Assembly: GCA_951406725.2 (NCBI GenBank)
Contig: OX597817.1
Coordinates: forward strand, 8,308,001-8,372,000
DNA from: Octopus vulgaris
Taxonomy: Eukaryota
Direction of reading: 5' to 3'
DNA length: 64,000 bases
Numbering within the stretch: position 1 is the stretch's first letter; every line of letters begins with the position of its first letter. Shown here piece after piece: positions 4,000-37,280 of the stretch. A program made the translations under genes and the position numbers. Below the pieces are notes generated by a model. The model searched no databases. It was given only the letters and a program-made list of their open reading frames with translations, and had not been told where the DNA came from.

Positions 4000-4485
4000 T
4001 CATCATCATCATTGTTCGACGGTGGTCGAGACAATGGAATTTACCATGCTACGCCAGACTTCACGGTCCATCATGGCATTACGGAGGTCCTGTTGCTGGA
4101 TGCCTGTATCCCTGGAGATTACATCAGGGTAGGAGAGTGTGCACCCTCTGGTATCGCGAGTAGATGGCTTCCAGAGGAGAAGAGTAGAAATTACCTCTTT
4201 TTCAGCTCTACAACAATGTCCAGCAAACTGGACTCTCCTACCTTTCACAAGAGATGACACAGGTGGTAGTTTCCCATATATTTGCATTTTGGTTGGATGA
4301 CGCTTCCACGAGAGATTTTGAGCTCTCATAAGGAGGCGAGTGTAGGTTCCATCCAACCGCCTCTCAAGCTTCTTTGATAACATCCAGGTTTCAGAGCCAT
4401 ATAGTAGAATTGGTTTGACTGTGGCTTTGAAGATTTCAAGTATGAAGTTTCTACTTAGATTTGATGACCAGATCTTATGCATGTC
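4000..4485 (-). mobile_element. 5'-truncated RTE-clade LINE, 3' end
   Basis: ORF 4009-4482 (ILLYGSETW...RVQFAGHCCR...DREVWR) is nearly identical to ORF 36790-37263; (TGA)n tail. Confidence 0.9.
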
Positions 4486-4739
4486 GGAGTACGGCTAAAA
4501 CGAATGTTAACTCTAATAGCGCCACTATAGCTAACTCTAATACGACCAGTACGACCACCACCACTAATACTACTATTACTAATACCACCACTACTGCTAC
4601 TACTAATAATAATGATAGTAATAATAATAGATAATAATAATAGCTGCAATAATAATGATAAGATCCAATTCCGTAATACCACCCTTATCTTTAACTTGTC
4701 TATAAATAGTACATTTTCCCTCTCTACAACTAACCAGCG

Positions 4740-14692: not shown

Positions 14693-15774
14693 CTCAAATC
14701 ACGGCTCAAAATCACGGCTCAAATCACAACGATATCGACTTTGTCTTTCATTCCTTCGAGTTCGTCACAATGAGTACATGTTATGATCCAAGGGCTTTTT
14801 CTAATCGACGACTCACTCTTCCTCTTAATGTGTGTCATTCTGTCTTTGTAAGAAATTATTATTTGATGATACAAAATCATAGTAATTGGATTTTCCATTT
14901 TGTTTTTTTTTTGCTATTTATTCGCGAAAGTCACCTCATGCTCGTTATTTAGCAGGTTGAACGTCTGTTTAATATGAGAACGAAGTGGAAAGTAGCGTGG
15001 GAAGAATTTCAGTATTTCGAATGGAAAGCGAAGTTATTTAGCAATTTATTTAACTTGGAAATATTGTCGTAGACGATATATACGCACGGTTATGTAAATA
15101 GATAGGCAGATAAACACACAGATGCGTAGATACAAAGCAATTATATGTTATTGATTTCCCTTTCCGTGCTCTCCTCTCTGCATGTGTAGGAAATATATGT
15201 ACATATTTATTTGTACATATGCATGCACACACAGACATATCAACACGTGCGTACACAGACGCACATATATTTATATACTTACACACGAACACATGCATCT
15301 ACACACGCTAAAACACATATATATGTATAAGTAAAAAAAGAACAAGAGAGAGATAGAGAGAGAGAGAGAGAGGTAAGGGCAGGGTAGAGAGATACATCTA
15401 AATGCAGAGTGGCAGAGAAAGAAAGGCTGACAAAGATATATACACAGACAATGAGAACGTTAAACAGAATCAAAGAAAAACATATATAGAGAAGAATATG
15501 TAGTCAAATAGACAGGTCCCTCACTTAACAGTATCTTTTGGAGACTGAAACCATGGTGCACCTTTACTAGATTTGAGCTCAGACTATAGAAGTACGGAGC
15601 AGATGCATTTGAGCCGGTTCTTTAATATTTCTGACAATTCAATTTATAATGATCAGTGTGGAGATGGTGTACTGGAATCGGGGTTTCATATTCCAGGTAT
15701 CTCGGCTCTACGTTTGATCCAGAACTGCAGGTCAAAAATAGGAGCTGTGAAAAGGCGTAGTAAACAGACGGTTA

Positions 15775-16805
15775 TCTCTATCGGTCTTTCAAAGAAGCCA
15801 AATTGTTGGTGCTCGTATGGCGGGTGCTAGTGAAACGAAAACAGCTGAAATATTTGGTGTATCAAGAAGTATTGTCTCGAAAGTAATGACAGCACTTGAG
15901 AAAGAGGGAAAAACCTCCTCGTCGAAACAAAACTCTGGAAGAAAACCAAAACTTTCAGATAGGGACCGTCGGACTCTTATGCGAATTGTTAGAAAGGATC
16001 ACAAAAGTACAGCCCCCAAAATCATTGCAGAGCTTAATGACCACCTCGAGAACCTAGTTTCCACAAAAACTGTTCGCCTGGAGCTGCACAAAACCGGATT
16101 TCACGGGAGGGCTGCAATCAGAAAACAAACGTTGCAAAGCGTTTAGAATAGAGTAAAAACCTACAGAATTGCTCCCTAGAGCAGTGGAAGAATGTTATTT
16201 TCTCGGACGAGTCATCCTTTACCTTATTTCCAACTACCGGCCGAGTATACGTGTGAATCCTTCTTCCAACTATTAAACGGAGGAGGATCTGTAATGATTG
16301 GGGGGGGGGGTATATATTGGAAATCCACCGGCCTAATGGTTTCCCTTCATGGCAGAATTAATAGTTAAGACTGTTTAAGTATTTTATCTGATCAAATTCA
16401 TCCTATGGTGGCGAAATTGTTTCCGGAGGGAAACGCAATCTTTCAGGATGATAATGCACCAATTCACACAGCTCCAGTTGTTACTGAATGGTATGAGGAA
16501 CATTCTAGTGAAGTTGAACATCTGATCTGGCTACCACAGTCCCAGACTTCAATATGATTGAAATTTATGGGGCATTTTAGAAAAACAAGTAAGGAGTCAA
16601 TGTCCCCTACCATCATCACTACAAGAACTGGAGACTGTTTTAGCTGAAGAATGGACAAAAATTCTTTTGGAATGTATTCAAACTTTGTACAAGTCCATAC
16701 CTCGTAGAATTCAAGCTGTAATTACTGCCAAAGGCTATCCTACCCCATATTAATATAAATTTGTTTGAAATTTTAAGGTGTTTCCATTATTTTGTCCAAC
16801 CCCTG
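15775..16805 (+). mobile_element. Tc1-like DNA transposon, decayed transposase with right TIR
   Basis: FQRSQIVGARMAGAS...SGRKPKLSDRDRR (paired-like HTH), WKNVIFSDES, FQDDNAPIHT, frameshifted SPDFNMIE; ends ccattattttgtccaacccctg followed by TA. Left TIR not found. Confidence 0.9.
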
Positions 16806-24739: not shown

Positions 24740-26316
24740 ATAAATATTTGTCTTTCTCTAGCTCTCTATATCTCTATCTTCAATTCATAGACCTTGCTGT
24801 GCGTGTTTGCATATGTATGTGTGTATGTGTGTGTGTGTGTGTGTGTATAAATATGTATGTATCTATGTAGTTATATATCGTTGTGTGTCCGAGCGTGTGT
24901 ACATACGTACGTCTGTATGTGTTATAGATAGATAAACAGATAGTCTTTAATTCTCTTTTATGTCTCTCTTTCTCATTCACTATTCTCCTTCAATAACCTT
25001 CTTCCCACTCTCATTCTCAATACCCAAAATCCATTCCACCCAACCCTTCATTCACCCATTCATTCCGGTAGAAATTTTACTCCTATCTTTTCCGCTACTC
25101 CTTAATATTTCCTCCCCCTCAGCTCCTTCCCCGTCCATAAACTTTTCATTCTCGAATTGATCAATCTATGTTTATCCCCTTTCCTTTCAGCTAATCTTCT
25201 TGCTAATCTTTCTCTTTATTATCCTCAAATATTTGAAAGTCTATTAATTTATCACTTTATTTATTGATTTAATTATAGTTTCCTTCTTCCAAGTATTTCC
25301 CTCCCGAAATATCAGTTATCTATATTTGCGTGTCTCCATGAATGGATGTGTTTTGCATTGTTTCTCTCTTTCTACATCTGTCAACATTTGTCAGTATGTC
25401 TGGCAATCGATATAGTTCCCTTTCACTCTCTTATCTCTCACTCTTTCCCGCCATCTCACCCTCTATTTTATCTCTCCGTACCATCTATAAGCATATTCTA
25501 GAACGCCCGACCCGCACTCCACCACACATTCATATACAGTTGATATAGAAAGTGTTATTTTAACAATATCTTTATATCTATTTGTAAAATTGGAAAAGCA
25601 CCGAGGAATCATCTATGCGGTCTCGCAAGTTGCTAGAAGTAGCAGTTAAACCTCATTGTAATCATAGTTGAAGTCGTGAAGTTTGCAACTTACACATTTG
25701 CAATCAAATTTATAAATCCCATTGATCATTAGCAACTTGTACTAGGGTTTACATACTTAGGTTTTGTATTTGTTATTGACATGAAGGTTTTAATCTCAGT
25801 GATTTAGTACTATATTACTAGTGTTAGGTGATGATTTGGTGAAATGCATTTTGTATTCTGTTTTATGAAGAATTTTGCTAATGAGTTCATTTTATTCTAT
25901 AGCTGTTATGCGGTTATACATTTTATGCTGTCTGTAATAGGTGTAGCCCCTGTTCTATTCATTGCATTATATCTGTGCTTATATTATTCTATGATTTGTT
26001 CTATTTCTTTATTACAAAACCTGTAATGGATGAGTTTTTTTTCAGTGGAATTTTTTTATCTTGCGTTTCGTTTGCAGAGGAGAATCTAAATGTTGTCTTA
26101 AGTAGGAATTTCGCTACTGGCATTTTACATTTGTGTGGACAATGACCGTCTCCACGTAACTAATATACAGTTATTTGTGCTTTTGATAAAAACGAATGTG
26201 ACATAATATCTGATATTGTCTATCTGCATGTTTTCGCAAAGAAATGGAGTCATTCTATTATTAAGGGTTTTATTTGTTGTTCTAAATGTTGAATTTTAGT
26301 AAGGAGACATTTTATA

Positions 26317-26792
26317 ATAGGGGCACAGATAGTGTGCCTAAAGCCAGCTGGAGACGATGATCTCCTGGGGCTAAAAGCTAAAGTAACACCCACCTTTTGT
26401 GGTTAGCCATATTGAGATGGCTAGTATACTTTACGTTGTCCTGCAGTTACTGTTTACATCTCGTTCAGAGATTTATTATTGCTTGCAGACAGTTTTTCGA
26501 AATCAGTGACGGAAGTTACTAGAAAAACACTTAAGTATTTGCATACAGGTCTTCCTTTTCTTCGTAATCCGGTGATTACCGCCCGTTGACAAGAGGCATC
26601 TACCTCGAAACTGCGGTCCGTGCGTATCACTTAGGCTTACGAGAGAGGGATGACCTCCCTTTGCAAATACCATAAGGGCACAGAAAGTGTGCCTAAAGCC
26701 AGCTGGAGACGATGATCTCCTGGGGCTAAAAGCTACAGTAACACCCACCCTTTGTGGTTAGCCATATTGAGATGGCTATTATACTTTACGTC
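26317..26792 (+). mobile_element. Retrozyme-like element: ~1.3 copies of a 355-nt structured unit with a hammerhead, 11-bp TSD
   Basis: 26321-26436 recurs at 26676-26791 (4 mismatches in 116 bp, period 355); gacattttata at 26306-26316 and 26793-26803; hammerhead at 26580-26624; no meaningful ORF. Confidence 0.8.
26572..26630 (+). ncRNA. Type I hammerhead ribozyme, U3-A8 variant
   Basis: gtgattac-cgcccg-TTGACAA-gagg catcta cctc-GAAA-ctgcgg-TC-cgtgcg-tatcac; predicted cleavage after C26618 (GUC). Confidence 0.8.
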
Positions 26793-26906
26793 GACATTTT
26801 ATAGTTCTTCTACTAATTTCTCATCATTTTCCGATGTATCCATTACGACTATAATATCGGCCACGTAATGTATATAGAATAGTTATGTGTTGCTGTTACT
26901 TTTCCA

Positions 26907-26967
26907 CTGCGAACAAGCAGAATGCTGCGAACAAGCAGAATGCTGCGAACAAGCAGAATGCTGCGAA
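26907..26967. repeat. 18-bp minisatellite (ctgcgaacaagcagaatg) x~3.4
   Basis: Read directly. Confidence 0.9.
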
Positions 26968-34555: not shown

Positions 34556-36051
34556 TACTATAATCTTAGATACCTCTAAAAAGAATAGAAGAGTCACGAC
34601 ATAGTTTTGCTTGGGTAAGATTGCCCTAGAATTAAATAGCACCTCGTACTTCACTTCTAATATAATCTATTCGAACTGATTGAATATAGTTCTTTTTGGC
34701 GAAATTACCTTTTGCCCGTGTAAGCAATTTCTGTAGGTAGATGACATTGAGGAAGTTTCTAAATTAGGGATTATTAATAGGAAATATCCATAATTCTTGA
34801 GGCTATAAGAATCAAAGGTTGAAGATATGGCATTCGACTTTTCTATCGTATTTCCATAATTCTACTAAATAAACGATAATATTGAGGAACTCATACAATC
34901 ATCATAGTATTTCCTTGATAAGGTTATACGTTGGTGCAGTAAGAGTTAGATCACTCTTCACTTTGAAGATTTTCAGTCTGCTTACATATCTTCAATACCA
35001 GAAAGGGCATGGATAGAAGGTTACCCATTCACATTTCTCCATTGAAACATCATTGAATAAAATCAATTTAAATAATACTGTTTCCTTAAATAATTATTTT
35101 TCATTGGATATTAACATTTTATATTTGACATTTAATTTTTCGTTTTATTCTTACAGTAATCTTTTTTTTTTGCGAAATGTCATCCTCACACTGATAATAA
35201 ATGAATAAATAAATAAATTAAAACAGAAACAGAAGTGCATTAATTAAAATGTTAGCCTTACTTGCACCTGTGTGACAGAACAAGATGGAAAGGAATGACC
35301 TTCTAATGTATGATTTGAAATTTTACAATGAGAAATGGAAATTTGAAGACGTCAGCACTGAGACAAAAATTAGAAAAGCAAGCAAAGAAAATTGATGCTT
35401 TAAATTTTGAAAAGAATTTGTTATCATTAGAAAGGATCTCTTTCATCATATGGGGGTTTCTCCTCCTGGAAACGTTATTCTGATAAACCTTAATTAAGTT
35501 TCGTTTATGAGTACAAAAGACGCATCATACAGAGAAAACCTAACGAAGCCCTGTGAATTGGAGGTTCCTAAAATTATACTGAAATAGGATGTGATGAAGC
35601 AATTAAGTTACATGTGCTTATCCACTGACTCTGTACGCCAGATCATTAAAAGTAAGAGTCAGGGCATTGCAATCCATGTTGCTCAGTCCTTCAAAAAACC
35701 AGTATACAACTTGATAACACAAGCGACATTTCAAACAAGAGCCAATTACGTGTATTTGTGCAACACCAAGAAAGAGTTTTTATTGAATAACCTCCTCCAT
35801 ACAATAATCAAAATAGATTAAGTGTTCAAGCCGATCGAATTGTTCTTTCATCGACCCGTGTTTGTAAATCGGGTGTTACTGTGTCTAGCTATCGGGTTGG
35901 AATTCTCGCAATGTTTGGCATGAAATTTAAGTTTGTTGTTCTGGTTAAGGTGAAAGTTCTGTATGAGTTCACTACATACTGTTTTATATTATCTAGTTTT
36001 GATATACAAAGTACTGCCATGGAAAGTGAAATCATACAGAACTTTGTCCTT

Positions 36052-37280
36052 TTTGTTGAACCTTTGCTCCGAAAGAACCAAAATGGATTCAGACATGGGC
36101 GCTCAACGCTGAGCCAGATACTATGCCTGCGCAGACTTATTGAAGAATCAAAAGCATTTAATCGCGATCTTGCAATGGTATTTGTAGACTTTTCTAAAGC
36201 GTTCGATTCTGTAGATAGGTACAAGATGTTTGAAATCCTTAAGCTCTATGGGATACCAGACAAAATTATTTCTGCCATCAAGGTCCTCTACACAGATACG
36301 TCTTCAACCATCTTAACCCCTGATGGAGAAACATCATCTTTCTCAATCAAAGCCGGAATACTGCAGGGAGACACACTCGCCCCATTTCTTTTCATCATTG
36401 TTGTTGATTATGTGCTACGTATGTCAGTTGATACCATCTCTGGCAAGGGCTTTGAAATAAAACCAAGAAGAAGTTCCAGACACCCAGCTGAGTACTTGAC
36501 AGACACTGACTTTGCTGACGACATCGCTCTTATCAGTGATTCTCTCTCCAATGCCCAGTCTCTTTTACAATCTCTTGAACAAGCCTCAAATTGTGTAGGT
36601 CTTTACCTCAAAGAGGCCAAAACTGAATACATAAACAAGTGCCTGTCCAACAGTGATTGTATCATCCATACTCTCAACAGTGCGCCTTTAAATATGGTTT
36701 CTGATTATAAATATCTTGGGTCATACATATCATCATCTGGAAAAGACTTTCTAACTAGAAAGGGTATGGCCTAGTCAGCCTGTAATGACATGCATAAGAT
36801 CTGGTCATCAAATCTAAGTAGAGACTTCAAACTTGAAATCTTCAAAGCCACAGTCGAACCAATTCTACTATATGGCTCAGAAACCTGGACGTTATCAAAG
36901 AAGCTTGAGAGGCGGTTGGATGGAACCTACACTCGCCTCCTTATGAGAGCTCAAAATCTCTCGTGGAAGCGCCATCCAACCAAAATGCAAATATATGGGA
37001 AACTACCACCTGTGTCATCTCTTGTGAAAGGTAAGAGAGTCCAGTTTGCTGGACATTGTTGTAGAGCTGAAAAAGAAGTAATTTCTACTCTTCTCCTCTG
37101 GAAGCCATCTACTCGCAATACCAGAGGGCGCACACTCTCCTACCCTGATGTAATCTCCAGGGATACAGGCATCCAGCAACAGGACCTCCGTAATGCTATG
37201 ATGGACCGTGAAGTCTGGCGTAACATAGTAAATTCCATTGTCTCGACCACGGTCGAACATTGATGAATGATGATGATGAC
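36052..37280 (+). mobile_element. 5'-truncated RTE-clade LINE (reverse transcriptase + C-terminus), one premature stop
   Basis: NQNGFR, VFVDFSKAFDSV, GILQGDTLAPFLF, DFADDIAL, YKYLGS; TAG at 36772-36774 (likely TGG>TAG), then in-frame continuation to 37263; (TGA)n tail. Confidence 0.95.

Follow-up and report, generated by a model that had tools for sequence, protein, structure and literature searches.

Among the metazoan non-LTR retrozymes, those described from mussels have units of 350–390 bp (PMC7229834). The mobilisation of such elements by Penelope-like elements (PLEs) was proposed in the same paper and is supported for frogs in a 2026 preprint (bioRxiv 10.64898/2026.07.22.740005), according to which eight of nine predicted frog retrozymes failed to cleave when tested; circles had been proposed as PLE templates in 2014. 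For PLEs as the movers of animal retrozymes, the support in the published accounts consulted consists of co-occurrence and terminal-repeat homology. PLE insertions are described as partial tandems with an inverted 5'-truncated copy, a tail of 30–40 bp at one end and a bias towards microsatellites (PMC8557442); furthermore, work with a purified PLE protein showed that it cuts both strands of AT-rich DNA and, in vitro, begins reverse transcription at two adjacent internal sites, which define the tail (PMC11167929). As regards cephalopods, the giant squid genome paper lists 235 matches to the Rfam hammerhead-1 model, with no further analysis in the passage concerned. Ribozymes are not mentioned in the text or the one supplement of an octopus repeat annotation, whose library may hold the present family under another label. 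Our literature search retrieved no description of a cephalopod retrozyme, the present family included; the supplements of PMC7229834 and of the preprint, which lay outside that search, may list relatives.

The window analysed in this work is a stretch of 64,000 nucleotides from Octopus vulgaris (contig OX597817.1, positions 8,308,001 to 8,372,000). It harbors an element that belongs to a known kind, the metazoan non-LTR retrozymes, as an earlier note on this DNA had proposed: it has a 355-bp unit, a type I hammerhead, no ORF, TSDs and a GC content of 45%, versus 30–34% in the flanks (Table 1). The same note described a non-coding insert of 476 bp with an 11-bp TSD, and this was confirmed; the 11-mer GACATTTTATA occurs only twice when both strands of the window are searched, the two copies being exact, and the longest ATG frame on the sense strand, read round the circle, is of 30 amino acids. 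The period of 355 proposed for the terminal redundancy also stood, whereas its length, given as 116 bp, was measured as 120 bp, with 96% identity and five differences between the two copies.

As for the surroundings of the insert, an 18-bp tandem repeat (3.4 perfect copies, 26907–26967 of the window) lies about 100 bp downstream, and a further subfamily-A copy (L100 3551–4013, G000:C4:8293552–8294012) is found about 14 kb before the window start. At 35791–37263, 4009–4494 and 15751–16146 there are what we take to be fragments resembling, in two of these places, the reverse transcriptase of RTE-type LINEs and, in the other, a Tc1-like transposase.

Table 1. Features of the insert and its borders in window coordinates (u, position in the 355-nt unit).
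Feature	Position	Strand	Remarks
Left TSD copy, 11 bp, GACATTTTATA	26306..26316	+	Exact match to right copy
Complete insertion, 1.34 retrozyme units	26317..26792	+	5' end, random truncation; 3' end, fixed site 1
Single 355-nt unit	26317..26671	+	Basis of numbering, u1 = 26317
End repeat, upstream copy, 120 bp	26317..26436	+	Differs from downstream copy at u4, u14, u65, u79 and u108
Fixed 3'-end site 1 (about u121), internal copy	26430..26443	+	Inferred reverse-transcription start
Fixed 3'-end site 2 (about u167)	26476..26488	+	Internal in the window copy
Long rod, hammerhead at tip	26535..26670	+	-58.6 kcal/mol, z -7.1
Predicted type I hammerhead	26580..26624	+	Every hammerhead part present
Hammerhead stem I	26580-26585/26619-26624	+	One C-U mismatch
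Hammerhead core TTGACAA	26586-26592	+	U3-A8 variant, not the usual C3-G8
Hammerhead stem II	26593-26596/26603-26606	+	From sequence
Hammerhead GAAA	26607-26610	+	From sequence
End repeat, downstream copy	26672..26792	+	Terminates at site 1
Right TSD copy, 11 bp, GACATTTTATA	26793..26803	+	Exact match to left copy

The genome, searched over 2.8 Gb in 227 contigs, yielded 4026 candidates with the whole insert as the query and 1968 with the rod alone, so that the locus is not single-copy. In each search the best 40 candidates were scored, and the samples used below for ends and variants are the best-scoring 30–40 of thousands. Besides subfamily A, we recognized A' (83–88% identical), C (about 79%), B (71%, 2077 candidates), E (69%), and D and F (both about 50%); the family is, therefore, one of high copy number, in which at least seven subfamilies can be told apart. 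A profile search gave five elements in 284 kb of PLE loci and ten secondary clusters in 340 kb of flanks, which suggests tens of thousands of copies in the genome, both density samples favouring insertion-prone DNA. Dispersed copies with TSDs of their own and multimers had been predicted and were found; an array near 13.62 Mb of G000:C4 (L099 3260–6880) comprises 10.2 units, has a 12-bp TSD and ends at site 1. The window copy carries one hammerhead and falls outside a definition of retrozymes cited in 2026, under which this array falls. Sequence runs under four species labels contain part of the element, and contigs from three of them were compared.

The hammerhead claimed in the earlier note was recovered with all its parts, together with two features not mentioned there, namely the U3-A8 core and the mismatch in stem I. 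Stem III of this copy has two pairs and a four-base loop, and the predicted cut would follow C26618, that is, between u302 and u303. The U3-A8 core has also been reported in the Cercyon PLEs of Schistosoma (PMC4209133). No Rfam hammerhead model matched the window element at the gathering score, nor did one when E values as high as 10 were admitted, and a sizeable repeat class appears to go undetected by Rfam. The rod is as stable as had been supposed, none of 200 shuffles reaching its folding energy, and the whole 355-nt unit gave z values, relative to shuffles, of -5.9 as a linear molecule and of -6.2 as a circle, the fold proposed beforehand (-4.7 for the reverse strand). When RNAalifold was applied to the mixed A and B alignment, the rod was only partly recovered, because the two subfamilies are offset by indels there. 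Across copies, stem III has one or two pairs and a loop that is palindromic or nearly so; palindromic loops prevail by 39 to 33 in the subfamily-A sample and are dominant by depth in runs X1 and X17. Hammerheads with such a palindromic stem III are described as cutting as dimers (PMC7229834, PMC4209133).

Moreover, the alignment of 16 A and 16 B copies revealed that core pair 3-8 is U-A in 16 out of 32 sequences, C-G in 14 and unpaired in two, counts that represent two lineages and not 30 independent events; stems I and II also change on both sides of the helix. The covariation analysis suggested in the earlier note gave a score of 0.295, compared to 0.173 for shuffled and at most 0.135 for slid controls, and the structure outperformed all 500 shuffles. 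Among the motif matches, the pair is U-A in 78 of 83 subfamily-A and in all 12 subfamily-C sequences, and C-G in 21 of 23 from subfamily B. According to a tree built without the core columns, pair 3-8 switched at least twice, support inside A being weak; A' (L243, L224, L230 and L237), which falls within the A group, has the core CCGAAGA, with C3-G8 again and U4 replaced by C. The swapping of U-A and C-G between subfamilies argues that the ribozyme core is under selection; that the hammerhead cuts, we infer. The subfamilies offer a series of naturally occurring compensatory mutations in the hammerhead core.

The ends of the insertions were tallied using queries that leave the 3' end free, over 49 distinct A loci, with a duplicate (L126) removed and two ends at u355, which are parsing artefacts, scored as misses. 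Sixty of the 73 outer 3' ends of subfamily A fall at u113–127 or u160–172, which together make up 28 of the 355 positions (8% of the unit), and 13 fall elsewhere; the 5' ends are scattered, only 2 of 25 lying in the same two windows. Hence, the random circular permutation expected of the copies did not hold, as only their 5' ends vary, while the fixed ends that would have pointed to an LTR or TRIM element were found on the 3' side and not on the 5' side. The same two sites account for 18 of 24 3' ends in subfamily C, and most subfamily-B copies running beyond the query, which ended at site 1, stop at the second site. An inverted piece is present on the 5' side in 24 of the 49 A loci; 37 of the 48 outer ends of these loci lie at the two sites, and 13 of the 24 pair site 1 with site 2. 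The TSDs measure 11–13 bp in 11 of the 18 cases outside (TA)n, and the targets (flanks judged by eye) are AT-rich, many of them being (TA)n. Three longer copies (L016, L023 and L046) have 5' ends at u295–299, a few bases before the predicted cut, possibly because copying pauses where the ribozyme is folded.

In having two fixed 3' ends and 5' ends that vary, together with inverted pieces and AT-rich targets, the family bears the insertion signature of PLEs, and the about 46 nt that separate sites 1 and 2 correspond to the PLE tail. In our opinion, the family very probably represents a non-autonomous hammerhead retrozyme for which an endonuclease-bearing PLE supplies the copying protein in trans. 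It is highly improbable that the family is instead SINE-like and moved by LINEs, an LTR element of the TRIM kind, or a satellite propagated at the DNA level. RTE-like fragments do occur in the window, and TSDs of 11–13 bp and 5' inversions are also known for LINEs; however, the copies end neither in poly(A) nor in a simple repeat that belongs to the element, their 3' ends lie at two sites inside a periodic unit, where the inverted pieces begin as well, and their termini are neither fixed on the 5' side nor of the TG..CA type. The end tally has already largely refuted these possibilities.

We examined the PLE loci retrieved from the genome, a minority of the 190 octopus PLE families counted in one paper. 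The first family (L094, G000:C6:133343000–133351000; L091–L098) has a frame of 781 aa matching RVT_1 and GIY-YIG, preceded by an additional frame that reaches up to 479 aa; its hammerhead motif is minimal and has the U3-A8 core, its two 3' ends are separated by about 40 nt, and in one copy the terminal repeats, of 504 bp, are identical. The second (L185–L194), with a 727-aa frame whose 532-aa scanned part gave no Pfam match, carries a motif resembling the hammerhead and has two 3' ends with about 70 nt between them; it counts 14,782 candidates, of which the 131 scored are 97–100% identical, and is a very recent burst. Both are young, with intact ORFs and (TA)n targets, and we take them to be Neptune-like and Hydra-like elements, clade names assumed from linker and end motifs. 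In a third family (L196 4800–5010, L208 4750–4965), which has a hammerhead-like motif of its own, about 30 nt separate the two 3' ends. None of these three tails equals the roughly 46-nt spacing of the unit, and the similarity of the unit's tail to those of the three families does not exceed that of shuffles (p 0.19–0.87). The 781-aa and 727-aa elements were also considered as homologous partners and rejected, having no sequence in common with the unit; a resemblance of the tail to that of the 781-aa element, noticed by eye, failed the shuffle test.

The unit might still be the pseudo-LTR of an as yet unfound autonomous PLE, the copies being its 5'-truncated ends. The shared insertion signature, the U3-A8 core common to the unit and the 781-aa PLE, and the frog data would agree with this, since 21 of 57 frog retrozyme families match PLE terminal repeats, and 24 families match 22 elements, 21 of which are PLEs (bioRxiv 10.64898/2026.07.22.740005). 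However, upstream of the repeat, the loci examined contain another unit (up to 10.2), never an ORF; no ORF combining reverse transcriptase and GIY-YIG domains was found in the unit or joined to it in these loci, and none of the PLE loci retrieved has a terminal repeat homologous to it. Both apparent ORF-linked cases (L196 and L208) turned out to be separate insertions into neighbouring (TA)n. We consequently regard this origin as very unlikely, and mobilisation in trans as the preferred reading.

According to the mechanism that we propose, tandem copies would be transcribed and 355-nt monomers would be cut out by the hammerheads, probably dimerised via the palindromic stem III, with part of the monomers being ligated into circles. 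A PLE reverse transcriptase/GIY-YIG protein would then nick AT-rich DNA, and copying would begin at one of the two internal sites, u121 or u167, so that a free RNA 3' end would not be needed. Reverse transcription would pass the cleavage site and stop at random, after 476 nt in the case of the window copy. The inverted piece would arise when priming happens again on the opposite strand, in many cases at the other of the two sites.

The nature of the template was assessed at 37 loci chosen with u9–u119 (one duplicate pair and three poorly parsed rows counted). No 5' end out of 37 lies at the cut (u298–308), with no pile-up there, and the predicted cut site is crossed in 21 of the 37 loci; the template was therefore a ligated circle or an uncut multimer, and cut linear monomers are not the main template. 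The earlier note had taken a 1.3-mer with a TSD as what copying round a circle would leave. Partial tandems are, however, the ordinary form of PLE insertion (PMC8557442), so that this arrangement alone is no evidence of a circle, and the two repeats of the window copy differ at the family-wide variant sites u14 and u108. The window copy is better accounted for by an uncut RNA of two units, or by template switching, than by a single circle.

Concordance was then scored at non-CpG variant sites between direct repeats within a locus, over 37 loci. Direct repeats are discordant in 21 of 107 cases (19.6%), the corresponding figures being 4.1% at the remaining sites and 47.8% when units are paired at random; the discordances fall in 13 of the 37 loci, and the other 24 agree at all variant sites. 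Inverted pieces are discordant in 26 of 183 cases. After exclusion of the most extreme locus (L007) and addition of more loci, 13 of 95 direct-repeat cases remain discordant (p 1.3e-4), seven of the 13 at u108. The variant sites are linked (r2 0.2–1.0), so the variants are mostly inherited. Since discordance at inherited sites exceeds the background, a single pass round one circle is insufficient for every insert: a circle suits two thirds of the loci, and the remaining third call for mixed templates, a switch of template or subsequent conversion.

The possibility that every insertion derives from one circular monomer copied from fixed starts, the repeat differences being due to error hot spots of the reverse transcriptase or to gene conversion, deserves consideration in this light. 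It would account for the loci that agree throughout and for a discordance far below that of random pairing, and the concentration of the remaining discordances at u108 would suit it, as would the recurrence of the u14 T/A variant in subfamily B (29 T, 6 A), which may leave room for error hot spots. Core selection together with the lack of 5' ends at the cut would also point to re-ligated RNA, and retrozymes of mussel, coral and axolotl yield abundant circles (PMC7229834). On the other hand, the linkage of the variant sites and the excess over background, which persists without the extreme locus, speak against it, and in the 10.2-unit array, whose units differ at no more than 4 of 349 bases, two haplotypes recur in non-adjacent units. 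We consider an exclusive origin from single circles possible, but doubtful.

Conversely, circles might play no part, tandem arrays supplying uncut linear transcripts as the templates, with the hammerhead serving only to trim read-through or acting at another stage. The mixed haplotypes inside inserts and the presence of tandem arrays in the genome would be in line with this, as would the energy of the active hammerhead fold, which in the circular monomer lies 6.3 kcal/mol above the best fold; moreover, ribozyme mutants of an anole PLE insert normally, unprocessed RNA being the main substrate (PMC11167929). A purely linear cycle, however, can only shorten copies and requires array growth at the DNA level, and upstream trimming predicts long copies starting at the cut, none of which starts exactly there. 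This scenario appears unlikely to us. By analogy, a circular RNA of the 355-nt unit is plausible, and we think that the template pool comprises both circles and uncut multimers.

A contig of run X4 was examined as a candidate abundant circle. None of the runs that contain the element is recorded as RNA; for runs X1 and X4 only contigs were used, their RNA origin being guessed. The dominant X4 contig (depth 1395) has loose ends that match the single locus L161, where a truncated copy of subfamily C (L161 4540–4800, G000:C27 near 10708560), from which the first half of the core is missing, lies about 1 kb behind a chitin-binding (CBM_14) frame; L162 is a paralogous stretch. The candidate was thus rejected as a passenger in a host transcript, and since its loose ends match L161 only, the contig speaks neither for nor against circles.

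More tentatively, the family may be an ancient and independent parasite at the RNA level whose sequence no longer shows a link with any PLE. PLE proteins would recognise it by its shape only, and copying would proceed from covalently closed circles of 355 nt, primed internally at two sites defined by structure; we would not count this as probable. If it were true, reverse transcription round circles would have left tens of thousands of natural records in the genome, with frequent circle hopping, and the unit would be a minimal template with which to test for circles behind PLE pseudo-LTRs and tandems.

Regarding the known systems, the octopus unit shares with hammerhead viroids and plant LTR retrozymes a small, highly paired RNA with a hammerhead, but its type I motif occurs on one strand only and it appears to have no LTR structure, the 5' ends being variable and the termini not of the TG..CA type. 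The label "viroid-like" used in the earlier note is too strong, as the family consists of genomic DNA copies, thousands of them, with TSDs, whereas viroids are described as having no DNA form and as replicating autonomously as RNA. With the metazoan non-LTR retrozymes (Cervera and de la Pena 2020, PMC7229834) it has in common a non-coding unit in the range of 150–450 bp, a type I hammerhead, multiple and tandem copies, a GC content below 50%, a TSD longer than 4 bp and a compact fold. The likeness noted here is one of features, and the octopus family differs in that most copies are dispersed 0.6–2.3-mers with PLE-type ends and that the U3-A8 core characterizes most subfamilies.

The endonuclease-bearing PLEs, such as Poseidon of the green anole (PMC11167929), likewise show two adjacent internal starts leaving a tail, and AT-rich targets, partial tandems, inverted 5' copies and a hammerhead with a palindromic stem III are also shared (PMC11167929, PMC8557442, PMC4209133). 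Unlike these elements, the unit has no ORF and a tail of about 46 nt instead of 30–40, and its stems I and II are canonical in size and not minimal as in PLE hammerheads. Internal priming explains how an RNA without a free end could be copied, and the 355-nt RNA would provide a small substrate for comparing circular and linear templates with purified PLE protein.

The study of vertebrate non-LTR retrozymes by Li, Clavereau and Pollet (2026, bioRxiv 10.64898/2026.07.22.740005) reached the same conclusion, that PLEs mobilise these elements, on the basis of co-occurrence and pseudo-LTR homology in vertebrates, three insects and a coral. In the octopus, where no homologous pseudo-LTR was present among the PLE loci retrieved, the evidence comes instead from the insertion ends, for whose use in identifying a retrozyme mobiliser we found no precedent in the parts of the literature searched. 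What the family adds is a clear PLE footprint on a retrozyme and a testable handle on the template question; the insertion ends constitute a different line of evidence, reproducing in a genome the internal initiation at two sites that was demonstrated in vitro with a PLE.
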